A stretch of DNA of 64,000 bases from Patescibacteria group bacterium (GCA_049322575.1 JBMORQ010000003.1:17719-81718); one strand, 5' to 3'. Shown: positions 34,279 through 52,745, counted from the first letter of the stretch. The notes: a model not told the origin generated them from the sequence alone. Numbers and translations are program-made.

Positions 34279-34351
34279 CTTTGATCAAGATATCGTTTTG
34301 TTTCTGAGTAACAAAACAGAAGCACAAAAAACTCACTTGACACAAATCCAT

Positions 34352-34516
34352 TAGACTTGTAGCGAAATAAAACTTTGTAGTGAAAAAACTGATTTTTTTG
34401 AACGAAAAGGGTTTTTTTGAGTGAAGTAGCAGCATAGCTACTTCAAGCAAGAAAAAAAACCTTTGCAGTACTTAAAAGCAGTTTTGTAATAAAACTGTTA
34501 TTTCACTACAAGTCTA
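34352..34516. repeat. MITE-like palindromic repeat, copy A (165 bp) with about 19-bp terminal inverted repeats TAGACTTGTAGCGAAATAA / TTATTTCACTACAAGTCTA
   Basis: Near-identical (about 3 mismatches) to 43723-43887. The TIRs are also found in the minimal copy at 50728-50783. Internal hairpin GAAGTAGCAGCATAGCTACTTC. Confidence 0.8.
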
Positions 34517-34573
34517 TTATGAAGAAAACTGCTGTATTTGTCTAGATTATCGGTTCCAAGCTAGACAATTCTA

Positions 34574-35968
34574 CTATTGATTCATACCACTGGTTTTATC
34601 AGCGGCTTCTTTAACGTTTGCGGGTTTTTTTCTCGCTTCAACTTCTTCGATAAAAGCGTAGTTAATTAGACGTGATACCAATAGATCAAGAACAGCAACA
34701 ATCCAATACCATTTACACAGCCAAACCAGCAGCCAAAAACCTCCTGAGTAACAGTCACACTGGCGCAACCAGTAGAACAGGCCAATGGAAAGCAGGGCTA
34801 TGACCACAGCCACCCAGTGCTTTGTCTGAGTACGCTTCTTCTTGAAATAGTTGTCGAATAACATGGTCACTAATAGTTGCAGGATAAGTAGTATCCAAGG
34901 AACATAGAAACGCCAGCTCACACAAACTCCACTTGTGGCACCGGCTACCTCACCAGTTGGTTGAGAGGTTGGTTGCACCTGCGCTGATTGAGTCGATTCA
35001 TCGGTTGTTTCACCTAAAACTTGCCCGCCTTGACCAACTGGGCGAACGTCAGGCGCCAAGACCTGTCCAGATGTGATAGGAATTTCAGCACTATTAGACC
35101 TAGGGCCAGGAGCACAATCGTTAACTCCAAAAATCTGGAAAGAGTACGCTTGACCTGCTGAAAGCTGAGTAACTGTGTATGATGTAGTATTGCCAATATT
35201 GGTACTTCCGTATGATGCACCATCAGATATTCTAGTAAAAACTAGGGCATAGTGAGTCACTGGGCTGACTGACGTCCAGTTAAGGGTTACAGCATTCGGT
35301 CCGGCACCAGCTACACTCAAAGAAGGCGCGGAGGTAGGAACTTCTGCCTCACAAACAGGTGGCTTGGCTGGATCAGTGTTGGTGGAGCCGGGATTACCAC
35401 CAGGAGGATTCCCCGGATTGCCAGGATTTCCCGGGTTAGAGGGTCCATCACAAGTGATTCTGACAGCAAAATCAAAAACTGTCCGAGAACGTTGAAACTC
35501 GTTACCAGCTAAAATGTCAAAATTAGCATTCCAGGTAAAAACTCTTGTTGAATTGGGAGCCAGACTACCGAGTGAAATATTATCAGTGTCGTATAAGTCT
35601 TGGTATGAGCGATCGCTGGTGGCAACACCCGATATCTGTGTACCGAAATAATCTGTATTACCAGAATAAATGGCCGCAAACATTCTCTCAGCCAGGTTAA
35701 CCGAGCTTTCTGGGGTTGTGTCTGTGGCGTTGAGCAGCAGATTGCATGTTTCGTCACTATCATTATTGGTAATAGTTAATGTCTGAGTGAAATTGTCTCC
35801 AGGCATCATACCACTCTCATTGAATAGTGGAGTATCAGCTGGGGAAATACTACACGGACCATTGTTAGCACAAGTCACAGTTAAATCTGTGCCCGCCTCA
35901 GCTGAAACAACCAAGTTAAGAAAAAATGACAACGAAACTAGAAGTGATAAAAATATTTTTCTAATCAT
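34574..35968 (-). CDS. Cell-surface protein: signal peptide, TasA/camelysin-like N-domain, PGN-repeat linker, FN3 domain, Ser/Thr/Gln-rich stalk, and a C-terminal polytopic (three to four TM) Cys/Trp-rich membrane anchor
   Basis: 'LFNESGMMPGDNFTQTLTITNN' resembles the TasA-family 'kPGD...N.G' block. 'NPGNPGNPGNPPGGNPG' linker. An FN3-like 'VTLNWTSVSPVTHYALVF...YSFQIFGVND' region. Hydrophobic tail 'WILLILQLLVTMLF ... AVVIALLSIGLFYWL ... FWLLVWLCKWYWIVAVLDLLV'. Confidence 0.6.
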   Translation of the reverse strand: MIRKIFLSLLVSLSFFLNLVVSAEAGTDLTVTCANNGPCSISPADTPLFNESGMMPGDNFTQTLTITNNDSDETCNLLLNATDTTPESSVNLAERMFAAIYSGNTDYFGTQISGVATSDRSYQDLYDTDNISLGSLAPNSTRVFTWNANFDILAGNEFQRSRTVFDFAVRITCDGPSNPGNPGNPGNPPGGNPGSTNTDPAKPPVCEAEVPTSAPSLSVAGAGPNAVTLNWTSVSPVTHYALVFTRISDGASYGSTNIGNTTSYTVTQLSAGQAYSFQIFGVNDCAPGPRSNSAEIPITSGQVLAPDVRPVGQGGQVLGETTDESTQSAQVQPTSQPTGEVAGATSGVCVSWRFYVPWILLILQLLVTMLFDNYFKKKRTQTKHWVAVVIALLSIGLFYWLRQCDCYSGGFWLLVWLCKWYWIVAVLDLLVSRLINYAFIEEVEARKKPANVKEAADKTSGMNQ

Positions 35969-38900
35969 TCCATCCTCCAGTTAAACCTGTTTCCAGGAGT
36001 TTTTCGGCATTATCTTTATCCTGCAGCCTTAGTTGCAGCTTGATAGATGTAGCATCGATACCGCGGTGGGGAGTACACTCTCCGCCAGAGCAGGTACCAA
36101 AATATATGTCCTTAACCTCGACTGAATCACTATCTATATCAACTCCGCCGTTAATCACATCCACAACCTTCACTTGATTGTCGGCATCTACCACTGGATG
36201 CTCGTATTCAATATGATATAGACCGCGTTCAAAGCTTGACGCATTCTTAATCGACATCCAAGCCTTAAAAGGCTCCTGTTGTTGTAAAACCACCAAAGGA
36301 TCGGTGGCTGGCACTGGAGTCGGACTGATGGCAGGCATGGTCTGACCCTCAACTAGAGCAAGATTGGAAAGTTCCGACCATTTATGAGCAGAATCCATCG
36401 ATTTAAGTGCAAAATAGTAGGCTTTACCCGCCTCCAAACCTTTGACCAGAAGATCTTCTTGCTCTCCAGCAACTCTAGGAGCTAGACCCTCTGAACCCAG
36501 TGTTAAATTTGAAACCGCTGAAACTCGGCTGGCCGCAGACCAGTTGTCCTGAGTAATTGGTTGCTCAGAATATCGAATTTCATAGCGTAGAACGCTGGGA
36601 GCAAAGTTATCTGAGGGTGCTGTGAATGTCAGGCTATACTCGCCCTCTCCCTCATCATACGCCTTGAGATCGTTGATCGAGCTTGGTGCTTGATCATCCC
36701 ATGTGACGTAGATCGAATTCATCTTTCCTTTGGCTCCAGTACTGGCTACGGACCAGAAGTAAAGCATGTGGTCATCCGGCTCACCTTCAAGTGTGAAACC
36801 CACACCTGATTTGAGTGAGCCAGTTTTGATCTGACCATCCAGTAAATATCTGTAAGCTACTTCGCCGATGGTATCAGGATTGTCACTATAGATGGTAAAC
36901 AAAGCTCCACTGTCAACAACAGTCGCTGCAGTGTTGACGTCGTCCAAGTAGACGAGAGTGTTTTGCGATTGATCGCCTGTGTTACCTGCTTGTAGTTTAA
37001 GATTGAGCTGAGACGAGGCATCGTCGGCAACGTATATTGAAACATATTGCCAACCACTTGCCTGCCCAGATGCACCTGACAACGCCTGAAGTCTCGAAAG
37101 ATCTTTTGCCCAGACTTGGTATACCAGTTTGTCATTGATGTAGGCCGACAAGGCTGGTTCATCAAAGCCAGGATCAACTTCGCTCGTAACCATATTAAAC
37201 CAGAAACCAACCGAACGAAGTCCACGACCGGAATTATCAATATTCTGCGAAATGCTGTTCACACCTTGGCCAGAACCGTCTAAAACCGCCATAAAGGTAG
37301 CGCTACGTGGCTTAACTCCTGCCTGTCCGTTTTCAACCGCAGCAACCTGGCCCTGAGTGCCCCATGACTCTAATCCTTTGGAAAAATCGCCATTGTACAC
37401 TTTGTTTTGGATATCTTTTTCTGGACTGTTGGTTACGGTAATTGTCGAACCAGATGTGCTATCAATTGTGACAATAACTTGAGAAGTGGGAGAGGTGACT
37501 ACACTAGCATTGCCGGCTTCATCAACTGCTGAAAAGGAAATAGTGTACTCTCCGTCAGGTACACCCGTAGTGTCCCAGCTGTAAATTGTTTCGTTGTTGT
37601 AAGTGTTGGCTCCACCAGTCTGATCTGGGAAAGAAGGGACGGCGTTATTGCTTGCATCACGTGCCGTCAATAACCAAGAAGCCGGATTGGCATCAGATAA
37701 AGTAACGTAAAAGTCTATTGTTGCATTAGCTGCATAGCTATCGCCATCACTTGGGCTGTTAATAGCAGCTGCTGGCGCTAAAGTATCTAAAGTAATCTCA
37801 CAGTAATCACTCCAGGCACCTGGCCAATCAACTCCTGCATCAAAATTTCCATCATGATTATTATCCTCAAAGGCTCTAACTCTAGTATTCCACAAACCTT
37901 GAACGCCTGAACCCGAGCCAAATGAAGAGAATAGTGTGTAATTGTCTGTGGCATAGAAATAACCAATTGAACCAGAAGGGTAAGTTACTTCACGTTGATA
38001 GGCAATGTTTCGCCCAGAAACTGCAGACCAATTATGTGCGACTCTAGGCGCTGAAGTATTACCCGTGTTGGTTGTTGCGCCACAAGCTAGGTCGAGAGGC
38101 CTTTCATCGGGTGTGGTGGAAGACGGAGGGATGTTCCAGCCATCATTGGTTGGAGTTGCGGGCGTCCAGACAGAAGTAGATAAGCTACCGGCAATTAACT
38201 CAGTATCACTAAAGCCCTGATCGTAGGATTCAAAATTTGTCTGCCAGGCTTCAGTCACCATGTTAAAGTTACATGTCATGTTCTCAAGACTTGTATCAGC
38301 ATCCACAGGCAAACTCACCTCGTAGCTAAACCAATGCTCATCAGCCCCATAAAAACTGTTGGGGTAATAAGTATGACTATTGATGATGACCATGTCTGGG
38401 TCATGAGTGGGATTGTTGGTTACAAAATCATTAAAAGCACTCAAGGAACCACTGTATTTGAGATCGCTCTGGACGTTTGTTAGATCGCCTGGAGTGGCTG
38501 GTGCTGCAGTATGCCAGTTGTAGTGAACCTGAAGTTGTAGAGCGTCACAAAGAGCAGTGTCACTACCTGGCAAGATCGAGACGCGTGAAAGATATTTCAC
38601 ATTGAGAGAACCTAGTTTCTGCACGTAGATATCTCGAGAAACCACGTCTCCTGGCCAAAGACTGTTACTAATTGGACCAAAATCAGCTTGATCTGAGCGT
38701 AGTCCAATATCAAGAGTCGAAGCAGTAAAAACACTATTATAAGAAGTCTCGAGATCGGCAATTCCAGACAGTGTTGGCAGAGTTGTCGAGACCAAAATGA
38801 CTAAGGCAAAAAAACTAGTAACTTTGAGCCAGGTAATCGACCTCTTCTTCAAGAAGTCCACAAAATTTTTGATGGTGGTTAGATCATTCTTTATCTTCAT
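35961..38900 (-). CDS. 979-aa secreted multidomain protein with a SipW-cognate-type signal peptide, a TasA-like N-domain, Ig-like, CBM4/9-like and FN3-like domains
   Basis: The N-terminus 'IADLETSYNSVFTASTLDIGL' aligns position-for-position with the TasA-like 'FDDTEVSANNTFVAGQIDLEV' of the gene at 39596-40408. 'LWPGDVVSRDIYVQKLGSL' is a TasA block. 'NGDFSKGLESWGTQG' is a CBM_4_9-like start. Confidence 0.65.
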   Translation of the reverse strand: MKIKNDLTTIKNFVDFLKKRSITWLKVTSFFALVILVSTTLPTLSGIADLETSYNSVFTASTLDIGLRSDQADFGPISNSLWPGDVVSRDIYVQKLGSLNVKYLSRVSILPGSDTALCDALQLQVHYNWHTAAPATPGDLTNVQSDLKYSGSLSAFNDFVTNNPTHDPDMVIINSHTYYPNSFYGADEHWFSYEVSLPVDADTSLENMTCNFNMVTEAWQTNFESYDQGFSDTELIAGSLSTSVWTPATPTNDGWNIPPSSTTPDERPLDLACGATTNTGNTSAPRVAHNWSAVSGRNIAYQREVTYPSGSIGYFYATDNYTLFSSFGSGSGVQGLWNTRVRAFEDNNHDGNFDAGVDWPGAWSDYCEITLDTLAPAAAINSPSDGDSYAANATIDFYVTLSDANPASWLLTARDASNNAVPSFPDQTGGANTYNNETIYSWDTTGVPDGEYTISFSAVDEAGNASVVTSPTSQVIVTIDSTSGSTITVTNSPEKDIQNKVYNGDFSKGLESWGTQGQVAAVENGQAGVKPRSATFMAVLDGSGQGVNSISQNIDNSGRGLRSVGFWFNMVTSEVDPGFDEPALSAYINDKLVYQVWAKDLSRLQALSGASGQASGWQYVSIYVADDASSQLNLKLQAGNTGDQSQNTLVYLDDVNTAATVVDSGALFTIYSDNPDTIGEVAYRYLLDGQIKTGSLKSGVGFTLEGEPDDHMLYFWSVASTGAKGKMNSIYVTWDDQAPSSINDLKAYDEGEGEYSLTFTAPSDNFAPSVLRYEIRYSEQPITQDNWSAASRVSAVSNLTLGSEGLAPRVAGEQEDLLVKGLEAGKAYYFALKSMDSAHKWSELSNLALVEGQTMPAISPTPVPATDPLVVLQQQEPFKAWMSIKNASSFERGLYHIEYEHPVVDADNQVKVVDVINGGVDIDSDSVEVKDIYFGTCSGGECTPHRGIDATSIKLQLRLQDKDNAEKLLETGLTGGWND

Positions 38901-39459
38901 TGCTTAATGACTCAGTTGCTAGCTTTTTGGCAGATTTTCTTGCTCTGAAAATTCTGGCAATTTCTTTTTTTATGGTATTAAATTCGTTATAGGCAAGTAA
39001 AGTAGCAGGAATAACAATTAATAAAACAAAACCCATCTGGGTTTGAGAAAACATCACAATTTTACCCAAATATGGTATATGGAAGATTACCTTGCCGATT
39101 ACTCTCTTTTGTTCGGCTAATTCAGGATCTGCTTCTTCATTAGCATCACCTTTTGTTTGATAAAGCACACGGTCTTCTCGGTTCACTATACCAGTAATTC
39201 GGTGAGTATAAGTCTTATTGGAGCCAATCACTGGTACAGCAGTGATAATGTCTCCTATCTTGTATTCTGCCTGATCTTTAACTATGACCAAGCTACCAAC
39301 GTTAAGTGCTGGCTCCATTGAACCGGACAGAACAGCAAAAACTCTAAGTTTCAGCGGAGTGTTGAACTTGGATAATGCCAACATTCCAGCAACTACAACG
39401 ATAAAGATAGCCACCATCCAGGAAACAAGATTGCTGATAAATGATATTTTACTTTTCAT
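38884..39459 (-). CDS. sipW: SipW-type (archaeal/ER-type) signal peptidase I
   Basis: N-terminal TM, 'VLSGSMEP' catalytic Ser motif, 'THRI' and 'TKGDAN' blocks, and a C-terminal TM. 191 aa, the same size class as B. subtilis SipW. Confidence 0.75.
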   Translation of the reverse strand: MKSKISFISNLVSWMVAIFIVVVAGMLALSKFNTPLKLRVFAVLSGSMEPALNVGSLVIVKDQAEYKIGDIITAVPVIGSNKTYTHRITGIVNREDRVLYQTKGDANEEADPELAEQKRVIGKVIFHIPYLGKIVMFSQTQMGFVLLIVIPATLLAYNEFNTIKKEIARIFRARKSAKKLATESLSNEDKE

Positions 39460-39595
39460 GGTTAAAGCTAGTTTAGCTTAACTTGCTAACATTTAGCTTA
39501 CATTTTTATTATTGCTTTTTAAAACTTGGCCTTTTGCCGGTTATTGCCTATGTGGCGGGGACAATCGCCCCGCCACAAGCAATTTAACAAAATCA

Positions 39596-40408
39596 TTACG
39601 GAGTCCAGGTAGAGCACTCGAAATTTTCGTTGTGTCTTGATTGAACTGCGTAGAAAGTGATGTCACCAACGACATCGTCTCCCTGAGCGACGTTATTTGT
39701 TGCAACACCGCTACAAGTGAAACCACCGTTGACAGCATCGACAGTCATGGTACCGAAGCACCAAGCCTGACCCAAATACTCAGCTCCAGGAGCTGGAGTA
39801 AATGGAGTTCCAACTGTACCTCCAAAAACGTGGGTAGTAGAGTCAACCAAATCGAAGGTTTGACCACCATTACCAGCACCTTGAGGTAAGTTGTTGAGGG
39901 TGGTTGGAGGCATAACGACTGACTCGCCTGCTTCGTAAACACCATCCCCATCGTCGTTCCAGAAGAAGAAGTTCAACTGGTCATCGAGCTCACCATTCCA
40001 GTCTCCTGCAGTGGTGTCTTCATCAGCTGACTCGGCGTCGTTAACGGCGTCGTCGTCTGATGCGGTTAATTCGATGTTAGAACAAACCCATGAAGGATTG
40101 TCGCTAACTTGCAAGGTTGCGTAACCGTAGCCGGAATCACCTGGTTTGACATCATCAAAATTAAAGAAAATTTGAGATGCTGTCAAATCTTGGACTCCCC
40201 AAGTTCCAGCTGTGTCAGCGACATAGCCAGCACCTTGGTCAACCCAAGCTTGGTGACCAACTTCTAAATCAATCTGTCCAGCGACGAACGTATTGTTAGC
40301 TGAAACTTCGGTATCATCGAAGTAAGCCAGAGTACCAGCAGAAACGCCGGCCACGACTACACCTAACAAAACTGCGCTTGATAAGATTTTCTTCATTGCA
40401 CTATTCAC
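39596..40408 (-). CDS. TasA/camelysin-family secreted fibre subunit with a SipW-cognate signal peptide
   Basis: 'KKILSSAVLLGVVVAGVSAGTLAYFDDTEVSANNTFVAGQIDLEVG' is the SipW-cognate class signal plus mature N-terminus. 'FDDVKPGDSGYGYATLQVSDN' is a TasA block. A GGGGG RBS lies upstream of the ATG at 40408. Confidence 0.7.
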   Translation of the reverse strand: MNSAMKKILSSAVLLGVVVAGVSAGTLAYFDDTEVSANNTFVAGQIDLEVGHQAWVDQGAGYVADTAGTWGVQDLTASQIFFNFDDVKPGDSGYGYATLQVSDNPSWVCSNIELTASDDDAVNDAESADEDTTAGDWNGELDDQLNFFFWNDDGDGVYEAGESVVMPPTTLNNLPQGAGNGGQTFDLVDSTTHVFGGTVGTPFTPAPGAEYLGQAWCFGTMTVDAVNGGFTCSGVATNNVAQGDDVVGDITFYAVQSRHNENFECSTWTP

Positions 40409-40838
40409 CCCCTTCCCAAGAAGAGTTATTTTTAAGTCAAAACTTAAACAAAAAACTCCGCCCTTCGAAAACGAAGTTAGCTACATCACTCCTAATTAAA
40501 GAAGTGCTGGGCAGGCAGAGTCCTTGTAAAGTCTTTCGTGCACTAAGTATTACGTGTTTTTTTTTGCTTTGTCAATTAGTGGGTTTGAGTAATTAATATT
40601 TTTTGCCAAGTGAGTCAAAATAGCAAAAAGGCATGATAGATAGGCGTGAGAATCCGATGAGATTTTTATAAGTTTTTTTCTGAGTTTCTGCACTTATGAG
40701 TAAATTATTTAACACAACACTAAAGCCATAGAAGTCTTGTGCGTGAAAAAATGGCAATGACGATTTTGATTTTTATATGATCTTAAAAAACTGCAAAAAC
40801 TCTTTTGTTCAAAAATCCAAAGTCTGAAAAATCCCGAG

Positions 40839-40867
40839 TTGAGCAAAAGCTAACATAACGCTATAAT
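40839..40867 (+). promoter_or_regulatory. Consensus-like sigma70 promoter (TTGAGC, 17 bp spacer, TATAAT) about 55 nt upstream of tRNA-Glu
   Basis: -35 TTGAGC at 40839-40844, a 17-nt spacer, -10 TATAAT at 40862-40867. Confidence 0.55.
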
Positions 40868-40924
40868 CTTGGGGCTCTTTATATAATAGTACAATTAAGT
40901 TTTTTAAGCCAAGACAGCAAACTT

Positions 40925-40996
40925 GGCCCCATCGTCTAGCGGCTAGGACATCGGGTTCTCATCCCGGTAACTGGGGTTCGATTCCCCATGGGGTCA
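40925..40996 (+). tRNA. tRNA-Glu (anticodon CUC)
   Basis: The cloverleaf GGCCCCA-TC-GTCTAGCGGCTAGGAC-A-TCGGG-TTCTCAT-CCCGG-TAAC-TGGGG-TTCGATT-CCCCA-TGGGGTC-A has the same architecture as E. coli tRNA-Glu. Confidence 0.75.
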
Positions 40997-41119
40997 CATC
41001 ATAAAAAAAGGATGCTTTACAGCAACTTTTTTATGATTGATACCGACAAATATATTTTTTCACTTCCCATTCACATCTAAATTACCAACTTGTCTGGCTC
41101 ATCGAGCACGAAGGAAAAA

Positions 41120-41380
41120 ATGAAAGTTCAAGTTTTGGGATCGGGCTGCGCCACCTGCAAAAAGCTATATCAGATTGTAAAAGAATCCATCGTAGAAATG
41201 GAGCAAGACCTGGAGCTTGAATATCTCACAGGAAACGAAGGCATAAATCGAATCATCCAACTTGGAGCGATGAACAGTCCAGTGCTAGTAGTGAATAATA
41301 GAATTGCCATGGTCGGTTTTTCACCAGACAAAGAAAAATTAAAAGCAGCCATTAGAAAAGCATTGGAGGAAACAAAATAA
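41120..41380 (+). CDS. Small thioredoxin-fold redox-active disulfide protein (redox_disulf_2-like)
   Basis: 'MKVQVLGSGCATCKKL' N-terminal CxxC with about 80 aa. AAGGAAAAA RBS before the ATG at 41120. Its stop overlaps the permease start. Confidence 0.65.
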   Translation: MKVQVLGSGCATCKKLYQIVKESIVEMEQDLELEYLTGNEGINRIIQLGAMNSPVLVVNNRIAMVGFSPDKEKLKAAIRKALEETK

Positions 41381-42357
41381 TGGATGTTTTTGCACCTCTT
41401 CAGGTTTTAGCTGATCGGGTAACTTACAACTTTCTAGGCATCACCCATGATAGTTATTTAGCCGGAGTAGTGAACTTCTGGATTTATGACGTAATTAAAA
41501 TCAGTCTACTGTTGATTGTCATCAACTATTTTATGGCGATCACACGGTATTATTTTCCAGTTGAAAAGGTTAGAGATTTGTTAGCAGAAAAAAAGTGGTA
41601 CGGAGTCAACTACTTTTTGGCAGCTTTACTGGGAGTTGTAACTCCTTTTTGTTCTTGTTCATCTATACCCTTGTTTGTTGGTTTTCTGTCTGCAGGTATA
41701 CCTTTGGGTGTTACCTTTGCTTTTCTGATTAGCTCGCCGCTAATAAACGAGTCATCGCTTTTTTTATTTCCCAGTGTTTTTGGAGTGAGAGCTACAGTTT
41801 TGTACAATCTTTTTGGCTTAGTTGTCGCCATGCTGGGCGGTTTTCTTATTCAGAAACTCAAGCTTGAAAAATATCTTCAACCCAATGTTTTGGTGTTCAC
41901 TGGCAAAAAACAATTACTTGAAAAGTATCAAGGCAAAAGCATTCCTTTTGCTGAAAAAATTAAGCTATGGACAAACGAAATGTGGCAGATTACAAAAAAG
42001 ATCTATCCGTACGTCTTAATTGGAGTAACACTCGGTGCCCTCATCCACGGTCTTATGCCAGAATCGATTATCAGCGACACTTTATCAATATCATCAGGAT
42101 GGAGTGTGCCTTTGGCAGTTGTACTGGGCGTACCTCTTTATGCTAATTCCGTAAGTATCATTCCTATAGTCGAGGCGCTGATAAACAAGGGGGTACCAAT
42201 GGGCACCGCTCTTGCATTTATGACAGCTACAGTTACTTTATCCATTCCAGAAGCACTCATGCTCAAAAAAATACTTAAATGGCAACTTTTAGCTTTCTTT
42301 TTCGGCATAACTATTATAGGTATTATCCTGATGGGTTACTTATTTAACCTTTTATAG
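41380..42357 (+). CDS. ArsP/DUF318-family permease
   Basis: About 8 TM helices with 'TPFCSCSSIPLFVGFL' (the TPFCSCS motif typical of the PF03773 permease family). It is co-transcribed with the small CxxC protein, as is commonly seen for this family. Confidence 0.65.
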   Translation: MDVFAPLQVLADRVTYNFLGITHDSYLAGVVNFWIYDVIKISLLLIVINYFMAITRYYFPVEKVRDLLAEKKWYGVNYFLAALLGVVTPFCSCSSIPLFVGFLSAGIPLGVTFAFLISSPLINESSLFLFPSVFGVRATVLYNLFGLVVAMLGGFLIQKLKLEKYLQPNVLVFTGKKQLLEKYQGKSIPFAEKIKLWTNEMWQITKKIYPYVLIGVTLGALIHGLMPESIISDTLSISSGWSVPLAVVLGVPLYANSVSIIPIVEALINKGVPMGTALAFMTATVTLSIPEALMLKKILKWQLLAFFFGITIIGIILMGYLFNLL

Positions 42358-43692
42358 TGTATTTTCCCTATTCAGAATATTTGCTGCCTTTTCACCTGAG
42401 TCTACCGCTCCCTCCATGGTTGCTAGATACTTCTGCTTTGTATAATCTCCAGCTAGAGTCAAACCAGGGAGAGAGGTCGCTTGAGGAGGCCTAAGTTTTT
42501 CAGATCCTGGGGACAACGAATAGAAATCTGCAGGATGTCGTATCACACGATAGTTTGTCATTGTCTTGAGATTAATGTTGATTTCTTTTGCATCTTCGAG
42601 GGCCTTTTCCAATATTTCTGAGTCTGACAGGTAAATTAGTTCGTCAGCTTTTGCCATAATTGCCGATAAACGTCCGGGTAGGTGTGTAAAAGTTGTTCGG
42701 GCTTGTTCTGCGTAAGAAGCCCACAAGGTATCGGGGCTGAAAACCACTCTGTCTGTGTTGGCAGATGGCTCAGATAACTCAAACTGAACAGTCACAGCTG
42801 GCATAGTTGGCAGAGCAAGTAATTCAGGGAAATGCCTTTTGAGTCCCGGTGTCTGGCGAATAATCGTTTTAGCTCCTGCCAGCGAAGCAGCCAGAATCAC
42901 TTCGTCAGCTACAATCTCTTCATAGCTGAGTCGAACACCTCTGACTTTTTTCCCATCAAAGAGTAGTTGGGTCACTTCACGTTCAGAATCAACTCGTCCC
43001 CCCTGCTTGGTAATGAAGTCAACGATTGGTTCAATCATTACTTCCGTCATACCGCCTCTAAATGCTCCAATCTTCAGTTGATGGATTCGTTTTAGATATG
43101 GTCCTATCGTGCCAAAAAAAACATAACTCGAATAACCCTCAGGAGGTAGAAAAAACAAACCCGTACTGAAGGGAGTTATTATCTTTTTAATGATGTCCTG
43201 ACTTAATCCTTCTCTTGTAGCAAATTCATATATGGAGACTTCGTCTAAAGAAGCAGGTGAAGAAAAGTACTCCTTAAGGCCCTTCACCATAAAATTTGAA
43301 AGAGCAAGTTTCTCGCTCGCTGAGAGAAAATCATTGTTGCCAAGTAATGAGCGTAATGTGTCAACAGGCTGACCTAGCGGAGACAAGGTTAAAATTTGAC
43401 TTGGGCCAGGGTTAGGCAATCTAATTTCAAGCTCATTGACCCATTGAACAACATCATCAACCTGCACCCCAACTTGGTGCAAAAGCCTAGGCAGAATCTC
43501 ATAAAATCCAAGAAAGCGATGTAAACCAGATTCGACAACCATGCCGTCTGCTTCCCATGAAGCAGTACGTCCCCCTATATATGGTTTCGCTTCAACGACA
43601 TGAATAAAAAAACCCTTTTTTATTAAATACACCGCAGCTGAGAGTCCGGCCAAACCCGCCCCAACAATGATTACTTTCTTTCGTCTAGTCAT
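42352..43692 (-). CDS. FAD-dependent oxidoreductase (amine-oxidase / phytoene-desaturase / HpnE-like fold)
   Basis: 'KKVIIVGAGLAGLSAAVYL...VVEAKPYIGGR' dinucleotide-binding motif. Start taken at MTRRKK (43692); the upstream 43 codons in the ORF track are translation of the MITE repeat. Confidence 0.7.
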   Translation of the reverse strand: MTRRKKVIIVGAGLAGLSAAVYLIKKGFFIHVVEAKPYIGGRTASWEADGMVVESGLHRFLGFYEILPRLLHQVGVQVDDVVQWVNELEIRLPNPGPSQILTLSPLGQPVDTLRSLLGNNDFLSASEKLALSNFMVKGLKEYFSSPASLDEVSIYEFATREGLSQDIIKKIITPFSTGLFFLPPEGYSSYVFFGTIGPYLKRIHQLKIGAFRGGMTEVMIEPIVDFITKQGGRVDSEREVTQLLFDGKKVRGVRLSYEEIVADEVILAASLAGAKTIIRQTPGLKRHFPELLALPTMPAVTVQFELSEPSANTDRVVFSPDTLWASYAEQARTTFTHLPGRLSAIMAKADELIYLSDSEILEKALEDAKEININLKTMTNYRVIRHPADFYSLSPGSEKLRPPQATSLPGLTLAGDYTKQKYLATMEGAVDSGEKAANILNRENTL

Positions 43693-43722
43693 AAGGCTAA
43701 CTGCACAACCTATTAATCGAAT

Positions 43723-43887
43723 TAGACTTGTAGCCAAATAAAACTTTGTAGTGAAAAAACTGATTTTTTTGAACGAAAAGGGTTTTTTTGAGTGAAGTAG
43801 TAGCATAGCTACTTCAAGCAAGAAAAAGAACCTTTGCAGTACTTAAAAGCAGTTTTGTAATAAAACTGTTATTTCACTACAAGTCTA
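43723..43887. repeat. MITE-like palindromic repeat, copy B (165 bp)
   Basis: Direct copy of 34352-34516 with about 3 substitutions. It ends 31 bp upstream of the oxidoreductase start codon. Confidence 0.8.
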
Positions 43888-43898
43888 TTTCTTGATAG

Positions 43899-44444
43899 CT
43901 ACTTTTCCCGACTGATATTGATCTCTTCGGCGTTGTGTTGAGTCATAATTTCCTCAATCTCGGCGCTTTTTTTCTGAAGATCTGCTGAACTGCCTTTGCC
44001 CGTTTTCTCAGTTTTTCCAGTGGCGTTCTGCTTTTTTGCCGAATCCATCTTCTCCTCCAAACTCACTGCCACCATTACGTCGCCTTGAATAATCCGATCT
44101 TGATAACGCCTGGCTGACTCTTCCGTCATACCCAAATCAACCAGTCCGCCAACTAAACCGCCTGCTAGGGCGCCAAGAGCTGCACCGGTAATACCCCAGG
44201 CTGCCATAAATGGACCAGCAACCAAGAGTGAGCCAACTCCAGGAATGGCTACAGAGGACAAACCTGCTAACAAACCCACAATTCCTCCGACCGCTCCGCC
44301 AGTCATCACGCCAGAAGTCACCTGGCTGTCTTTCTCATCTCTGGCAATCACCGAAATGTCTTCCCCATAACCTTTTTCGCGTAGCTTTTGCACCACCTCT
44401 TTCGCATCCTGTTTGTCGGTAAAAATTCCTGCTATGTACCTCAT
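43899..44444 (-). CDS. YflT-like general stress protein N-domain fused to a glycine-zipper membrane segment
   Basis: 'MRYIAGIFTDKQDAKEVVQKLREKGYGEDISVIARD' resembles B. subtilis YflT (GSP17M). 'GGAVGGIVGLLAGL...GAALGALAGGLVGGLV' is a glycine-zipper TM region. Confidence 0.5.
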   Translation of the reverse strand: MRYIAGIFTDKQDAKEVVQKLREKGYGEDISVIARDEKDSQVTSGVMTGGAVGGIVGLLAGLSSVAIPGVGSLLVAGPFMAAWGITGAALGALAGGLVGGLVDLGMTEESARRYQDRIIQGDVMVAVSLEEKMDSAKKQNATGKTEKTGKGSSADLQKKSAEIEEIMTQHNAEEINISREK

Positions 44445-44548
44445 CTTATCCTTTCTTCAACCCTTAGGGCTGTTTATTAACCTGCCACCTTGAGCACCTT
44501 GGCTGTTCGGTGGCAGGACATTTATTGATGTTGCTTGTCAGATCGGAA

Positions 44549-44929
44549 TCATGCCGAGCTTTTGCTATCGCCTGTCTCACGTCTTTTTCTCTCTCTGACA
44601 TTAATCTGGTTCACCACATCGGTTACGCCACTACTCCAATATGCATCGGCATACGCTAAGGGCTTTGTTCGAGGATTCCTCACCTCACCCCTAAGCGTGA
44701 CAACTCCATCCTTTACAGAGATCGAGATTTTATCGGCGTCGGAATAGGTAATGCCCGGGTCGGTCCGGATATTGTCATAAACCAGATCTTCAATCTCGTT
44801 GTCATCTAGTACAAAATTATTGTTGTAATCATAAAGGTTGTAATCTGTCCAACCTGTCGGGGCTCCCCACCAGTAACTATCCGTGTCACCATAGTCCCAG
44901 TTTCGCCAGTATCTGATCATTTGTCTCAC
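44549..44929 (-). CDS. BON-domain (OsmY-like) protein
   Basis: 'ISISVKDGVVTLRGEVRNPRTKPLAYADAYWSSGVTDVVNQINV' matches the BON domain pattern. Confidence 0.55.
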   Translation of the reverse strand: MRQMIRYWRNWDYGDTDSYWWGAPTGWTDYNLYDYNNNFVLDDNEIEDLVYDNIRTDPGITYSDADKISISVKDGVVTLRGEVRNPRTKPLAYADAYWSSGVTDVVNQINVRERKRRETGDSKSSA

Positions 44930-45402
44930 CTCCTTTCTATTATTTACTGAGCTGACTGCTATGTTTAACAGTAACTCGCAGCAACCTAAGTAGCTTAACT
45001 AAAGCTTGCTCTTAGTATGCCTGTGTCTTAGAGTGTCAGGTTTATGTGTGTCTTAAAGAAAAGGCGTGTAAAGATCGTGTAAGAGGATTAATCGATGTTT
45101 TTAATAGGCAACCTTGCCGATATTGACTGGCTGCCTAAACGAACTATTTAAAAATCGAATTTTCTAACGAAAAACTGATTTTTGTGAGAGAAGTCATTCT
45201 CGAACGCAGAAATGATAAGGCTACTAAGTTTGATCAAACGACCTTAGTATTAATAAAAAGTAGCTTTGTGCTGCTGCTCTCTACACATCCTTTACATCTG
45301 TTAAAAAGGCCTATATATCGCAAAATATACATATTTAATACACTAAAAATCACTTTGATAGGGTTGATAGATCTGGTAGAGCATGATAGTATCAACAAAC
45401 TT

Positions 45403-48219
45403 ATGACAAAAAAACTACTAACCCTCACTGGATTAGCAATTAGCAGCCTTGTGCTTGCCCCAAAGACCTATGCTGGCAACTTGCCAGGTTTTGTCGTCAA
45501 TCACGACAATGTTGAGGAAACAATCGAAAACGGCGACGGTACTCAACGTACACAGGAAATAATCCCTAGCACCTATTTAGATGCTGCACGAAATAGTGAT
45601 ATCTTATTCGGTCACCAATCTGTCGGTCGTGTCATTTCTTACGGCGATGACAACACCTCAAACGGAGGTTTAGATGACTTGGTGAGCATGTATACCAATG
45701 GTTCACGATATCAGATTAATATGGATGGCAATCAGCCAAATGGCCTCCCCGATACAGTTTCAGCAAACTGGTATGTGACAAATAATGGTGTGGGAGAAGT
45801 ATTAATTGGTGACAATTTTAATCCCGTTTCCAAAATGGAGCACTTTGTCAATCTACTAGCTAGATCAGATATTAATCAAAACGTCAAGCTTGCATTAATG
45901 AAGTTCTGCTACGTTGACTTCACTAATTACACCGCAGCACAGGTCTGGAATGAACTCCCCGTCAACGTGGGTAGTACTACTGTATACGGTTACCGCGGCA
46001 TGATGGAGTATCTGGAAACGACCTATCCCAACATCAATTTCGTTTGGGTCACAGCTCCTCTAACTAGATCTAATCCTATTAGTGGCTATGGCACCAATGC
46101 CAATCGTTATGACTACAACACTCTAGTCAGGAACTACACTGCAGCCAACAATAAGGTTTTGTTTGACATTGCAGATATTGAGTCCCACGATTTATCTGGC
46201 AACTATTGCTATAACGCAACTGAGCGTGAGTATGAGTGTGACGGTACCTTGGCAGAAAACTATGTCAATGGTACTGGTCATCCCAACACTTTAGGCGCTT
46301 CTCGACTATCTAGAGCATTCTGGTGGTTAATGGCACGCGCCTCAGGTTGGAACCCTGGCTCATCGAATTATTCGCCTGTTGCCAGTTTCACCAGTAGCGT
46401 CAACGCTGCCTTGGTCCCTGCCACAGTGAGTTTTGATGCCTCGGCTTCTAATGACCCAGATGGCAATATCGTTAGCTATAGCTGGAACTTTGGTGATGGT
46501 AGCACAGGCTCAGGTGTAACTACCAGCCACACCTACACCCAGGCTGGTACTTACCAAGTCACTCTAACAGTCACCGATAATGCAGGAGCAACCGGCACAG
46601 CTTCAACTACTCTAACCATAAGTAGCGAGAACTCTGGCACTGGCGCTTTTAACGAAATAGCTGGTCAAGTTTCAATCGAAGCCGAACATTATCATTCAAA
46701 CCAAGCAGCTTCCAATGGCTCTTGGTCTGAAACAACCACCGTTGCAGCCTTCTCTGGTGAGTCGTATTTGGTGACCCCAGACAATGGCTTATGGAGAAGC
46801 GAGTATCAACTAAATGACTCTCCAATGGTGAGTTACGAGGTTAATTTTAGCTCTCCAGGTACTTATTACCTCTGGGTTCGCACCAATAATCCAAGCAACA
46901 CCAGTGACTCTCTCTACTTCGGAATCGACGGTAGCAGAGTTGGAGCCATGGAATTAAGTAATCTCAACAACTGGGGATGGAGCAGAACGGTTCGCATGAG
47001 TTCTAGCCCTGCGTCTGTCACCATCGGCTCAGCCGGCACTCATTCCATCAATATTTGGATGAGGGAGGATGGAGCAACCGTTGACAAGGTCATCTTAACC
47101 ACCAATGCCTCCTATGTGCCATCAGGCTCTGGACTAGCCGAGAGCCCACGAGGAGAGGTCAATCAATTGCCAGTGGCATCGGCCACTGCTACCCCAACTT
47201 CAGGAAATATTCCACTTGAAGTTAGCTTTGATGCCTCGGCTTCTAATGACCCAGATGGCAATATCGTTAGCTATAGCTGGAACTTTGGTGATGGTAGCAC
47301 AGGCTCAGGTGTAACTACCAGCCACACCTACACCCAGGCAGGCAGTTTCACTGCCACCTTGACCGTCACCGATAACGACGGTGGCACCGCCAACCACACC
47401 ACTAGCATCACGGTGGTGGATCCAAATGCCAACAATCAGCCAACCGCCAGCTTCACCCAGGACAAAACCAGCGGTGTTGCACCTGTTGAAGTAAACTTTG
47501 ATGGCTCGGCTTCAACTGATTCTGATGGCACAATCACCGACTACTCTTGGAACTTTGGTGATGGCAATACAGGATCTGGCGTCACTACCAGCCACACCTA
47601 CACCCAGGCGGGGTCATATCAAGTCACCTTAACTGTGACTGATGATGACGGGGCAACCGCCACCGCAAATCTCACCATCACCGTGACTGTACCCAACGGC
47701 ACGGGGGCTTTTGTTGAGACGGCTGGCAATGTCTCTATGGAAGCTGAGCATTTCATGAGCAATGCCTCAACGACTATCGGAAGCTGGAATGCAGCCACTG
47801 CTCTTGCTTCTTATACCGGTGAGTCTTACATCACTACTACAGACAGCAATGTCTGGAGAAGCGAGTATCAACTAAATGACTCTCCAATGGTTAGCTATGA
47901 GATCAACTTCAGTACTCCTGGTACATATTACCTCTGGGTTCGTACCAACAATCCAAGCGGCACTAGCGATTCTGTCCACTTTGGTCTTAACAACGCTCGA
48001 GTTGGTACCATGGAACTGAGCAATGTCGGCAGCTGGGGTTGGAGCCGAACCCTTCGTATGAGTTCAAGCCCTGCTTCAATTACGGTGAGCAGTGCTGGCA
48101 CTCACACCTTCAATATCTGGATGAGAGAGGACGGAACCAACGTAGACAAGATTATCTTGACCACTAACGCCTCCTACACTCCAAGCGGTGAAGGAATAGC
48201 CGAGAGCAGCAGACAATAA
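45403..48219 (+). CDS. Large secreted protein: signal peptide, SGNH/GDSL-like hydrolase-like domain, PKD domain, CBM-like beta-sandwich, two PKD domains, and a second CBM-like beta-sandwich
   Basis: Signal 'MTKKLLTLTGLAISSLVLAPKTYAG'. 'ILFGHQSVG' (GDSx-like) and 'NGTGHPNTLG' (block-V-like). Three 'SFDASASNDPDGNIVSYSWNFGDGSTGSGVTTSHTYTQAG' PKD units. Two 'SEYQLNDSPMVSYE...YYLWVRTNNPS...WGWSRT' units of about 170 aa. Confidence 0.8.
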   Translation: MTKKLLTLTGLAISSLVLAPKTYAGNLPGFVVNHDNVEETIENGDGTQRTQEIIPSTYLDAARNSDILFGHQSVGRVISYGDDNTSNGGLDDLVSMYTNGSRYQINMDGNQPNGLPDTVSANWYVTNNGVGEVLIGDNFNPVSKMEHFVNLLARSDINQNVKLALMKFCYVDFTNYTAAQVWNELPVNVGSTTVYGYRGMMEYLETTYPNINFVWVTAPLTRSNPISGYGTNANRYDYNTLVRNYTAANNKVLFDIADIESHDLSGNYCYNATEREYECDGTLAENYVNGTGHPNTLGASRLSRAFWWLMARASGWNPGSSNYSPVASFTSSVNAALVPATVSFDASASNDPDGNIVSYSWNFGDGSTGSGVTTSHTYTQAGTYQVTLTVTDNAGATGTASTTLTISSENSGTGAFNEIAGQVSIEAEHYHSNQAASNGSWSETTTVAAFSGESYLVTPDNGLWRSEYQLNDSPMVSYEVNFSSPGTYYLWVRTNNPSNTSDSLYFGIDGSRVGAMELSNLNNWGWSRTVRMSSSPASVTIGSAGTHSINIWMREDGATVDKVILTTNASYVPSGSGLAESPRGEVNQLPVASATATPTSGNIPLEVSFDASASNDPDGNIVSYSWNFGDGSTGSGVTTSHTYTQAGSFTATLTVTDNDGGTANHTTSITVVDPNANNQPTASFTQDKTSGVAPVEVNFDGSASTDSDGTITDYSWNFGDGNTGSGVTTSHTYTQAGSYQVTLTVTDDDGATATANLTITVTVPNGTGAFVETAGNVSMEAEHFMSNASTTIGSWNAATALASYTGESYITTTDSNVWRSEYQLNDSPMVSYEINFSTPGTYYLWVRTNNPSGTSDSVHFGLNNARVGTMELSNVGSWGWSRTLRMSSSPASITVSSAGTHTFNIWMREDGTNVDKIILTTNASYTPSGEGIAESSRQ
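46432..47339 (+). repeat. Intragenic direct repeats: a 113-bp perfect DNA repeat (46432-46544 and 47227-47339) encoding identical PKD-domain cores. Together with the duplicated CBM-like module (about 46640-47150 and 47700-48210), this indicates recent internal duplication.
   Basis: Identical nucleotide strings 'TTTGATGCCTCGGCTTCTAATGACCCAGATGGCAATATCGTTAGCTATAGCTGG...' are seen at both positions. Confidence 0.75.
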
Positions 48220-48242
48220 TCAAAAAATAAATTGATATTAAA

Positions 48243-48285
48243 CCAGCCTATTGTCGGTTCATAACTGACAGGGCTGGTTTTTTTG
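48243..48285 (+). terminator. Rho-independent terminator after the PKD-protein gene
   Basis: CCAGCC..TGTC / GACAGGGCTGG stem followed by a TTTTTTT run. Confidence 0.65.
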
Positions 48286-48343
48286 TGGCTTTTTCCCATT
48301 TACAAAGCTTTCTTGATCTGGATTAATCCTATAATAATAAGGA

Positions 48344-50746
48344 TTGACATGTGTATTAGATGAGTTACAATTGCTTTTTACATATTTGATGTGTATCGAT
48401 ATGTTAAACACAATTGAACGTATAACTAAAAGAAATCGAGGAATTAGATCATTCCGCAGGAGTGGCGCAGAGCGACCAAACCCCGATGTTTCTTCTGGCA
48501 CGCTTGCTGCATACCTTTTGCTAGAATTTTTAAGTCGAGAGACTGCCAATAAATCAACTATTCCCTCAGTCGATAAGACCATCACCTCAATTGAACAGCA
48601 GTTAAATACTCTCGAGATTGAGATACCAGAAGCACTAGATATTGATGGTTCAAACGAACTTGCTTATCATTATTTAAGAACTTTGAAGGTCGCTCAATAC
48701 CTTGACGGAGGTCTAGACACTAGAAACACCCCATCTCAAATTTATACCACAGCCACCAGGCTAAATTTGGAACAACAATTAGCTAATCTCCCAGATGGCG
48801 TGGCTAATGCTTTCACTAACCCCGCATTTATTCTTAGACAAGAACTTGCCTCGATGGGTTTACATGGATTTGATATTTATTGTGATGCAATTATTAACGG
48901 CCCACTTGTTTCAAACGCAACTGAAACCAGAATTTTACATAAGATCAGAGAAGCCAATCCTGAGTTAATAGGTAAGGAGTTAAATAGACTCTCAAAATTG
49001 ATTAAGAAACTGTCATTGTTAACCTATGACGCTGGCTCCACCACTGGCAACAGCATTCACCAGGACTCTCAAACCTTCTCAAATCTAGAAAAATGGACCA
49101 TGTTTTTACAACGACTTGAGCGTATTGAAAACGAAAACCAAAGAAGAATAGCGGCCAGAATAGTCATGGAAACTGTCCGTCAACAAACAGCCCTAACTCG
49201 AGCCGATGGCCTGGGCTTGGCGTTTGATTCAGTATTTGGTATTTCAGGTACACACTTTATGTATTTCATGGTAAATGGCGACCAAGAAGGTGTGTTGTGT
49301 CAACCTGCCGCCTCGGGAAGTACTGTGGGGGATGCTGCTAGAGGGAAAAAATTAGGTGGTGGTGTTGGTAGCTGCGCAAATTTACCAGAAAACAAAAATC
49401 CCTGCACCAAGGTCGATGTCACGATCGTACCCAGCCGTAAAGAAGATGGTTCCGCGCTGAGTTTTGAGGAATACCGTTTCCTGCAAATTAAATCGCTTGT
49501 TGAGGGTCTGGAAAAAAGCTTGAAAATTTCTGAGACCACCAATAATCCACCTCAGTTTAGCCATCTAGTTGCCATTCCACCCAAGTGTGGCTTGGTTTAT
49601 AAACAAGCTGAAGAGCTTTTAAATAGCTTTGACCTAAACTATCTTTTAGAGAGCTCAACATTAACAAACAAAGCACAAAAAGCGATAATTACAAAGTTTT
49701 TAGAGAAGCAAGGCAAATTCTTATTGATCATCGATGCTGCTCAAGAGCGTTGGCTGGTAGATCCAGCTAAAGTTTTGCAATTGTTTGAAAATAAAGGTAT
49801 TGCCACTGTCTGGATGAGCACTCTTTCTAAGTCAATCGGAGCCGCAAAGTTGGCCGGTCTTTTTTACTTTAATTCACAGGCCACTGAGTTGGTTGCTGAA
49901 AGAATTTCTAGGGCTACTAGAGAAGAAATTCTCAACATAATTCGTTATTATGCTGTTGGTTTCTTGAGCCCAGCACTTGAGCAAGCTGTAATGCAAAGAA
50001 TCGAGACACTGAATGCACAGCCCAATGCTGAGAAAATACCCACAGAATTAGCTATCAACTTCAACCAAGCAGCCAAAGTTCTGGCCTCCACAGAAACATT
50101 AGCGGAGTTTAGAGCTGCCAATAAACACGACATAGACCAAGAAGGTGAACTTCAAGCAAGTATTAACTGGTTAAGGAACATTACCTCCGCCAGCATTAAG
50201 GATCATCTCCAGATCAAATTAGTTGATGACCAAGATGCTTCACCCTCAATGATTCAATCATTTCTCATTAAGGATTTGCTTGGTGAGCCATTCAGCTCTA
50301 CCATGTTAAAAAGACTGAGAGTGATGCTCCGAACCGGCGTTGCTTTTAATGAAAATAGTAGCAAGCTAGAATTTTTTGCTACCAAAACATTTTGTGGCAA
50401 CCCATTTGATGACATTACTGCCACACCCAAGAGAGATGAAAACGGTAATTTGCTAGACGTTGCCATCAACAAAACCAAACACGTACCTTTCTTAAGGTTT
50501 GGACCTAGAGCCGAGCTGATCATGACCATAAGCAAATTGTTAAACGAAAAACAGAGACTGGAAGCTATTGAACAAAAAACTGAGGATGACTTGGTTCAGC
50601 TCAATGCTGCTCAAACTCAACTAATAATCATCGAAAAGTTATGGCAAGAAAATATTGATCGATTGAGAAATGTCGTTGAATATTATCATCTGCTTGCAAC
50701 AAAGCTTTATCAGGATGGAACATCTAATAGACTTGTAGTGAAATAG
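48344..50746 (+). CDS. Large orphan protein (up to 800 aa), predicted soluble and alpha-helical, no recognisable domain. The true start may be an internal Met.
   Basis: A long uninterrupted ORF with balanced composition, no signal peptide or TM, no Walker or nuclease motifs. Its stop codon TAG (50744-50746) lies inside MITE copy C. Confidence 0.55.
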   Translation: MTCVLDELQLLFTYLMCIDMLNTIERITKRNRGIRSFRRSGAERPNPDVSSGTLAAYLLLEFLSRETANKSTIPSVDKTITSIEQQLNTLEIEIPEALDIDGSNELAYHYLRTLKVAQYLDGGLDTRNTPSQIYTTATRLNLEQQLANLPDGVANAFTNPAFILRQELASMGLHGFDIYCDAIINGPLVSNATETRILHKIREANPELIGKELNRLSKLIKKLSLLTYDAGSTTGNSIHQDSQTFSNLEKWTMFLQRLERIENENQRRIAARIVMETVRQQTALTRADGLGLAFDSVFGISGTHFMYFMVNGDQEGVLCQPAASGSTVGDAARGKKLGGGVGSCANLPENKNPCTKVDVTIVPSRKEDGSALSFEEYRFLQIKSLVEGLEKSLKISETTNNPPQFSHLVAIPPKCGLVYKQAEELLNSFDLNYLLESSTLTNKAQKAIITKFLEKQGKFLLIIDAAQERWLVDPAKVLQLFENKGIATVWMSTLSKSIGAAKLAGLFYFNSQATELVAERISRATREEILNIIRYYAVGFLSPALEQAVMQRIETLNAQPNAEKIPTELAINFNQAAKVLASTETLAEFRAANKHDIDQEGELQASINWLRNITSASIKDHLQIKLVDDQDASPSMIQSFLIKDLLGEPFSSTMLKRLRVMLRTGVAFNENSSKLEFFATKTFCGNPFDDITATPKRDENGNLLDVAINKTKHVPFLRFGPRAELIMTISKLLNEKQRLEAIEQKTEDDLVQLNAAQTQLIIIEKLWQENIDRLRNVVEYYHLLATKLYQDGTSNRLVVK

Positions 50747-50783
50747 CATTTTTATTACAAAATTTTATTTCGCTACAAGTCTA
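50728..50783. repeat. Minimal MITE-like copy C (56 bp): the two TIRs joined by a short AT-rich spacer
   Basis: TAGACTTGTAGTGAAATA...TATTTCGCTACAAGTCTA. The TIR variants (GTG on the left, GCG on the right) are swapped relative to copies A and B. Confidence 0.7.
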
Positions 50784-50784
50784 A

Positions 50785-52274: not shown

Positions 52275-52745
52275 TTAGGTCGATATTTCAAGCAATTTTT
52301 CCAGTTTTTTAAGTTGTTGTTCGTGTTGCTCAACCTCAAGTAAGAAGACCTGCATGCCCAACTCCATAGCTGGGTAAATATCTTTACTCATTGAGTCACC
52401 TACCATTAAAATTTTAGTCGGAGACAGTCCCAGAGATCCACAAGCAGCCAAAAAAATCCGTTTGTCTGGCTTAGAAAAACCAACCTCGTCAGCGAAGGTC
52501 AAACTTGAGAAATAACCATCAATACTTAGTTTTTTTAATTCATAACGGGCTGTTAATCCTGGCGAGTTAGAAAGCAAACCTAAACGGTATCGTGAGTTTT
52601 CAATCTTCTTCAAAAGCCCAGTGACCCCTGGAAAAAGCACCATCTCTGTTTGGCTATGATCCGCCTGATTAGCTTGATAAAAAACCAATGTTCCTGCCAA
52701 GTCAAATACAACCGCCTCAACTTGCTGACAATCAATTTTATTCAT
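52275..52745 (-). CDS. HAD-superfamily hydrolase (small, beta-PGM/phosphatase-like)
   Basis: 'AVVFDLAGTLV' motif I and 'MVGDSMSKDIYPA' motif III. Start taken at MNKIDC. Confidence 0.6.
   Translation of the reverse strand: MNKIDCQQVEAVVFDLAGTLVFYQANQADHSQTEMVLFPGVTGLLKKIENSRYRLGLLSNSPGLTARYELKKLSIDGYFSSLTFADEVGFSKPDKRIFLAACGSLGLSPTKILMVGDSMSKDIYPAMELGMQVFLLEVEQHEQQLKKLEKLLEIST

Follow-up and report, generated by a model that had tools for sequence, protein, structure and literature searches.

Miniature inverted-repeat elements in a Patescibacteria chromosome that share their ends and target duplications with IS5-family insertion sequences of other genomes

We analysed a 64,000-nucleotide stretch from a Patescibacteria group bacterium (GCA_049322575.1 JBMORQ010000003.1:17719-81718; hereafter the window, with positions counted from its first letter) that carries three copies of a short palindromic repeat. 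These are, with high confidence, genuine miniature transposable elements with inverted repeats (MITEs), the non-coding partners of a ~1-kb IS5-family insertion sequence (IS) common in Patescibacteria, and they are scattered insertions that are not shown to build or delimit the 16-kb segment between them. The copies share terminal inverted repeats (TIRs), each is flanked by its own 3-bp target-site duplication (TSD), and their ends recur on transposase-bearing ISs in other genomes. The three copies are:

34350..34518 with TSDs, plus strand: MITE copy A, a 165-bp repeat at 34352-34516, defined by repeat, TIR and TSD analysis
43721..43889 with TSDs, plus strand: MITE copy B, a 165-bp repeat at 43723-43887, in the same orientation as copy A
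50726..50785 with TSDs, minus strand: mini-MITE copy C, a 56-bp repeat at 50728-50783, inverted relative to A and B

The two long copies and the 56-bp minimal copy lie where the original prediction had placed them. Exactly three mismatches in 165 bp separate A from B (position 13 G/C, 79 C/T and 106 A/G), which fits the recent copying that had been read from their near-identity. All copies share an 18-19-bp TIR, TAGACTTGTAGYGAAATA, and this pattern has eight matches in the window at three or fewer mismatches, against 0.13 expected from dinucleotide shuffles, none of 100 of which reached eight; six of the matches, with 0-1 mismatch, are the ends of the three copies. The ~19-bp TIRs first described are therefore real, except that the outer T and A of TAGAC...GTCTA belong to the TSD, as set out below. 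Copy C corresponds to A(1-21) joined to A(131-165), with identity at 54 of 56 positions (two mismatches), a junction at a TTTGTA microhomology and the central 109 bp of the 165-bp form gone, and it is therefore an internal-deletion derivative of that form.

All three copies are intergenic and non-coding, the only long open reading frames (ORFs) crossing them being mechanical extensions of neighbouring genes. A and B each lie between co-directional minus-strand genes. Copy A sits between the stop of an fn3 gene (34574, minus strand) and the start of a CAP-domain gene (34278, minus strand), and copy B sits 9 nt downstream of the stop of a YflT-like gene (43899-43901, minus strand) and 28 nt upstream of the inferred ATG of an amine-oxidase gene (43690-43692, minus strand), an intergenic gap that would measure ~38 nt without it. 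A long TTG-initiated ORF that runs into copy B is an artefact, because the FAD-binding motif begins right after the ATG at 43692. Copy C alone of the three changes a protein: its insertion point, AAT|TAA, is the overlap of the stop codons of two convergent genes, 48344-50746 (plus strand) and 50785-51564 (minus strand). The duplication preserved the stop codon of the HAD hydrolase, and the plus-strand orphan ORF now ends in ...SN-RLVVK* versus ...SN* before, with a TAG inside copy C (50744-50746) and five residues added to its tail.

The borders of the element were defined on 53 paired elements, namely those of the window and others among 76 loci that a scan of 185,579 species genomes for the end sequence had turned up. 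The TSD, whose definition had been proposed as a check on the original prediction, is 3 bp long with the consensus ANT over the 53 elements. It is perfect at all three window copies (A, ATT at 34350-34352 and 34516-34518; B, ATT at 43721-43723 and 43887-43889; C, AAT at 50726-50728 and 50783-50785) and at 36 of the 53 elements overall (AAT 20, ATT 13, ACT 2 and TTT 1). In 43/53 elements the two sides agree in the middle base, versus 41% expected (binomial P = 2.5e-9), and in only 5/53 are they complementary there, indicating a duplication and not an extension of the TIR. Together with the two bases outside it, the terminal T or A makes up a 3-bp direct repeat; we therefore excluded that T and A from the element, so that the element proper reads AGACTTG...CAAGTCT: 163 bp in copy A (34353-34515, AGACTTGTAGCG...CACTACAAGTCT), 54 bp in copy C and, family-wide, AGACTTGTAG...CTACAAGTCT with an A-N-T target duplicated.

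The same ends bound complete, transposase-bearing ISs in other genomes, among them three full-length ones (locus handles are those of our scan):

L045 5727-6744: full-length IS of 1018 bp, same TIRs, TSD TTT
L057 4-1024: full-length IS of 1021 bp, same TIRs
L059 1563-2636: full-length IS of 1074 bp, same TIRs, TSD ATT

Each contains one ORF of 298-314 aa matching DDE_Tnp_4 (E ~1e-26 to 1e-27). These transposases score 93-96 bits against PF13359, above the Pfam gathering score of 24.8, and 54-67 bits against PF01609 (DDE_Tnp_1; cut-off 23), and one of the three also has an HTH_Tnp_4 domain; the three proteins share only 44-56% identity, whereas the TIRs around them are nearly alike. The ends also surround a DDE_Tnp_4 gene in L160-L165, L166 and L169, and perfect 3-bp TSDs flank the transposase-bearing elements at L045 (TTT), L059 (ATT), L160 (AAT), and L165, L166 and L169 (ATT). 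A protein search returned 1240 members of the transposase family at E <= 1e-20, many of them on contigs of ~1.0-1.1 kb, which is the usual signature of a repeated IS, and one and the same transposase (P0072) recurs in no fewer than four separate genomic contexts, within a 1052-bp IS that has these TIRs. With TIRs, 3-bp TSDs, no coding capacity and TIRs identical to the ends of transposase-bearing ISs, the copies bear out the MITE-like nature first ascribed to them. Even on cyanobacterial plasmids, where the transposases have no more than ~36% identity, the ISs have TAGACTTGTCGGGAAATAAG or TAGAGTTGTTGGGAAATA as their ends, and these nearly unchanged ends are therefore an old hallmark of this IS5-family subgroup.

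Two of the partner loci have features of their own. At L057, two overlapping right-end TIR matches lie 17 bp apart (1007-1041), and the IS abuts a 455-aa ORF (1014-2381) that by eye resembles a large serine recombinase. A 1755-bp version of the IS (L166 582-2336 and L167 567-2321), with the same TIRs and an ATT/ATT TSD, holds an extra 215-aa ORF on the opposite strand inside the TIRs, possibly a passenger gene.

The window itself contains no homologue of the cognate transposase (tblastn, best E = 0.26), as the original prediction had stated, and with no transposase gene there we infer that the elements are mobilised in trans. A transposase encoded at another site of the genome, or one since lost from it, would bind the ~19-bp ends AGACTTGTAGYGAAATAA and excise or copy the element, which would then be inserted at A-N-T targets through a 3-nt staggered cut, repair giving rise to the 3-bp duplication. 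A and B are best read as recent sister copies of the 165-bp foldback form and copy C as a 56-bp derivative left after loss of the central 109 bp, all of them being selfish insertions scattered in a Patescibacteria chromosome, not edges that bound an accessory or mobile island.

Several results weigh against this interpretation. No transposase of the family lies in the window or in the ~7.5 kb recovered past its right end, and a mobilising enzyme in the same genome is hypothetical. The MITE interior has no similarity to the ISs beyond the ~20-bp TIR, which lends no support to an origin by deletion from such an IS, and 17 of the 53 paired elements are without a perfect TSD. The best match of the transposases in NCBIfam, the IS5 equivalog NF033581, scores 88-98 bits, under its curated cut-off of 140, so that the IS5 placement holds at the family level only, with no named ISfinder subgroup. 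Finally, JGI metagenomes scanned with the flanking amine oxidase gave a best match of 45% identity and neither an empty site nor a synteny partner; with no close relative in the collections searched, we infer mobility in this lineage from the TSDs and the near-identity of the copies.

Folding of the copies recovered the internal hairpin that had been noted originally. Copy A, folded as DNA, reaches -38.1 kcal/mol (z = -8.0) and copy C has z = -8.7, and all copies form long hairpins far more stable than shuffled controls (z ~ -8). An alignment of thirteen diverged members of the ~165-bp class yields a consensus that is one long hairpin, in which 90.7% of cells are paired, versus 40-50% when the partners are slid, and 72 cells are changed on both sides, versus 16-28 when slid; none of 500 shuffles reached the observed covariation. 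These compensatory changes exceed both controls, indicating that the two arms co-evolve. By our own count the alignment holds ~22 G-U and ~13 A-C cells, and since both kinds are present, a constraint specific to RNA is not evident. Bacterial MITEs in general are known to form stable foldbacks (PMC3184786).

Relatives of the elements are widespread. Paired elements elsewhere measure 42-60, 81, 108, ~143-155, ~162-167 and 184 bp and come from metagenome-assembled genomes (MAGs) labelled Patescibacteria, Parcubacteria, Saccharibacteria, Pace-, Woese-, Gottesman-, Collier- and Daviesbacteria, together with one deposited as 'Clostridiales' and several as 'Gammaproteobacteria' or 'Pseudomonadales'. 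Single MAGs can hold many MITEs with these TIRs, for example ~15 loci in JAHIVK01. We estimate that ~35 chance matches to the 18-mer are expected in a genome collection of this size and therefore discounted solitary matches, such as those in archaea, while paired matches cannot be chance. In viral contigs we found two solitary TIR matches only, fitting chance or decayed copies, and no evidence for a phage vector. Among the elements found by TIR scan, the 165-bp form of the window has a single close relative, L036, at 76% identity; most others share the TIRs only, and several ~165-bp families also share a central TAGTAGC-loop-CTACTT hairpin.

Some of the taxonomic labels in this set look unreliable. 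The label 'uncultured Pseudomonadales' or 'Gammaproteobacteria' is given to L062 and L014, as well as to L036, L043, L072 and further binchicken MAGs, all with members of this MITE family, and L062 is collinear with window 1-10 kb and L014 with the SecDF region, at 43-63% protein identity. The collinearity of such contigs with the Patescibacteria window weakens the evidence for spread across phyla. Variation also occurs within the TIRs, with TGTCG/CGACA or CTTCTTG/CAAGAAG variants at both ends of one element (L046 6055-6219, L064 7400-7564, L076 2634-2798 and L025 6017-6182), and the Nostoc plasmid IS likewise ends in TGTCG. Such variants may distinguish lineages of MITEs, each suited to its own transposase variant.

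We regard it as rather unlikely, though worth stating, that the elements form an old MITE superfamily spanning many Patescibacteria lineages and the MAGs labelled 'Clostridiales' and 'Gammaproteobacteria', with the foldback and the central TAGTAGC-loop-CTACTT hairpin kept by selection and not by recent origin. If so, the foldback would point to a hairpin-dependent step in transposition by an IS5-type enzyme or to an exapted host role between genes transcribed together, such as the processing or stabilising of RNA, or attenuation; copy B would be an example. The ends have remained nearly unchanged although the cyanobacterial and Patescibacteria transposases are ~36% identical, so that very distant transposases could cross-mobilise such MITEs.

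The original prediction also took the copies to delimit, and to have helped assemble, an accessory segment of ~16 kb, a reading that the data do not support. The enclosed genes are those it listed: a tRNA-Glu gene (40925-40997) and genes for a TasA-like Peptidase_M73 protein, a SipW-like S26 peptidase, a thioredoxin, an ArsP permease, an amine oxidase, YflT and BON proteins, a PKD protein and an orphan ORF. This content of surface or secreted proteins, stress proteins and an 800-aa ORF without any homologue but itself would suit functional borders of a composite-transposon-like or recombination-assembled island, as would the direct orientation of A and B with the same ATT flanks, which is compatible with movement or recombination of a unit, and the tetranucleotide composition of the segment, whose correlation with the rest of the window is the lowest of any 16-kb segment (r = 0.931 vs 0.936-0.983). 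Two large surface-protein genes, however, account for the deviation: the 979-aa gene region (r = 0.83 for 36-40 kb) and the PKD gene with its many repeats (r = 0.64 for 44-48 kb); the blocks adjoining the MITEs are ordinary in composition, and the shift neither starts nor stops at them. A matching TSD, moreover, accompanies each copy separately, and that of copy C (AAT/AAT) clearly marks a simple insertion, of an element that is inverted and shortened compared with A and B, although with ATT at all four flanks of A and B the TSDs are uninformative on recombination between these two or on their joint movement. The segment also includes a tRNA gene and ordinary metabolic genes, and by our own calculation three points are not significantly clustered when they fall in 16.4 of 64 kb (P ~0.16). 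Two partial copies fall outside it:

29548-29565, minus strand: possible TIR relic, a half-site TAGGCTTGTAGCAAAATA with two mismatches, solitary and with no partner end in reach
L170 4440-4502, ~window coordinate 66,950 (~3 kb past the right end), same genome: one-ended copy

The half-site lies in a divergent intergenic region, 23 nt upstream of an ATG at 29589, and is possibly the relic of an older insertion. The one-ended copy, between a 142-aa ORF and a Peptidase_S13 gene, has a right end, TTGTAATAAAAATGTTATTTCGCTACAAGTCTA, closely like that of copy C and lacks the left TIR. With partial copies at 29.5 kb and ~3 kb past the right end, the elements appear scattered and unlike boundary markers, and we consider a border function improbable.

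Two readings of the elements themselves fare worse still. All copies read TA-GACTTG...CAAGTC-TA, as would MITEs of the IS630/Tc1-mariner type that duplicate TA, but the bases outside the TA co-vary as a direct A-N-T repeat in 43 of the 53 elements, elements with a differing terminal T or A still have a direct repeat (TTT/TTT at L045), and full-length elements with these ends encode transposases of the DDE_Tnp_4/IS5 type, not the IS630 type. The TSD statistics and the transposase family together rule out TA duplication, to which we attach a negligible probability. Alternatively, the repeats could be structured elements under host selection (REP-like palindromes, for instance, or terminators, or stabilisers of mRNA) or could encode a small RNA. 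The whole-length hairpin kept by compensatory changes over diverged families would fit this, as would the central TAGTAGC...CTACTT hairpin common to families that otherwise share TIRs only, and the position of all copies between genes, A and B between co-directional ones. Rfam, however, gives no sign of a larger conserved structured RNA gene at the copies: only two tRNAs match in the window and nothing at the copies, and even at a permissive threshold the best match to copy A is an irrelevant snoRNA model (E = 0.21; 21.7 bits vs a gathering score of 57). Around each of the three copies neither promoter signals nor terminator-like T-runs exceeded those of shuffles, and the foldback, in which G-U and A-C cells both occur, is of the kind general to bacterial MITEs (PMC3184786). 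The TSDs, and ends identical to those of transposase-bearing ISs, show transposition instead and make a primary host function very improbable, which leaves room for a secondary, exapted role. Transposition of MITEs by an IS5-family partner thus accounts best for the repeats, which may also affect neighbouring genes.

Among known systems, the closest is the IS5 family (the IS5 / PIF-Harbinger / ISL2EU clade, and in particular its short-TSD subgroups), which the partner elements resemble in their length of ~1.0-1.07 kb, single DDE_Tnp_4 ORF of ~300 aa, TIRs of ~19-20 bp and sequence-biased 3-bp TSD. ISfinder gives TSD lengths of 3 bp for IS1031 and 2-3 bp for ISL2, and part of the TIR here, GCGAA(A)TAAG, resembles the E. 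coli IS5 end GGAAGGTGCGAATAAG. The target differs: the TSD is ANT, mostly AAT or ATT, whereas IS1031 uses TNA and Harbinger TWA. The papers that we found do not give a TSD consensus for ISL2 or IS1031, and the canonical Harbinger TSD is 3 bp (PMC12730594). A further difference is that the window holds non-coding derivatives only. The ISs of Nostoc punctiforme pNPUN02 (~224.88-225.89 kb) and Leptolyngbya boryana pLBX (~296.0-297.0 kb) are each ~1.0 kb long with one ORF annotated 'transposase family protein', and their TIRs, TAGACTTGTCGGGAAATAAG and TAGAGTTGTTGGGAAATA, are nearly equal to the TAGACTTGTAGCGAAATAA of the window; they differ in that their transposases are only ~36% identical to those of Patescibacteria and that their hosts belong to a different phylum.

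Like MITEAba12 (Acinetobacter, parent ISAba12), Correia (Neisseria), RUP (Streptococcus pneumoniae) and Nezha (Anabaena/Nostoc), the window elements are short and non-coding and lie between genes, with IS-matching TIRs, TSDs and predicted hairpins that are stable. For Correia and RUP the duplicated target is TA, and both relate to other IS families. MITEAba12 has 9-bp TSDs and GGCTTTGTTGC ends, both of which rule out identity with it (PMC6382973). Nezha, which is tied to ISNpu3, has a direct repeat quoted as CATTATCTAC, 10 bp (PMC6042816, PMC3184786), and identity with it is ruled out by the 3-bp TSD here, a comparison made by direct repeat. Bacterial MITEs sometimes fuse to the 3' ends of ORFs (PMC6382973, PMC3184786), as copy C has done, and the window elements, having only TIRs in common with the IS, fit the 'type II' category of MITEs that share TIRs alone with it (PMC6382973). 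In the searched literature, the TIR sequence matched unrelated primers only and no paper quoted it; MITEs and Patescibacteria appeared together in two papers only, with a single passing mention in each, no relevant paper dealt with insertion sequences in the candidate phyla radiation (CPR), and a 2024 survey of MITEs in NAR left these taxa unmentioned. The copies are thus ordinary bacterial MITEs with an IS5-family/PIF-Harbinger-like partner, with the ANT target, the conserved ends and the covarying foldback as modest extras.

These observations document an active-looking IS/MITE system in Patescibacteria (CPR bacteria) and supply a rule for annotating MAGs, namely ends AGACTTGTAGYGAAATAA with a 3-bp ANT duplication. 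Copy C is a concrete example of a mini-MITE remodelling the C terminus of a protein between two abutting genes, and the three copies together caution against equating neighbouring MITEs with the borders of an island. For the mechanism of IS5/Harbinger-type transposases, the conservation of the foldback and the deep conservation of the ends offer modest leads.

The setting of the elements is chromosomal, as the window carries the housekeeping genes for RecJ, the CCA-adding enzyme, SecD and SecF. The same DNA is present in the Logan short-read assembly of run SRR32167786, in which contig L001, equivalent to window ~34490-43765, begins inside copy A and finishes inside copy B, and a second contig terminates inside copy A; ending as they do within A and B, these contigs indicate that the 165-bp repeats break short-read assembly. 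It is another Logan contig that reaches ~7.5 kb beyond the right end of the window and carries the one-ended copy.

The ORF extended by copy C (48344-50746, plus strand) encodes 800 aa with no Pfam domain, and its sole match among ~5.8 billion proteins is its own NCBI record, ACOZAN_00435 [Patescibacteria group bacterium], making it a true orphan. The neighbouring gene with PKD and GH115_C domains (45184-48219, plus strand) contains internal repeats of 170-200 nt, at 46425-46597, 47220-47392 and 47490-47662 and at 46723-46922 and 47785-47984; most of this gene falls in the 4-kb block 44001-48000, and no other block of the window departs as far from its usual tetranucleotide composition (r = 0.64, GC 0.46). 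Flanking the region on either side are two paralogous NTP_transferase genes (32122-32838 and 52738-53523), which share a 37-nt direct repeat (32345-32381 and 52982-53018, 81% identity) that is probably a conserved coding motif.

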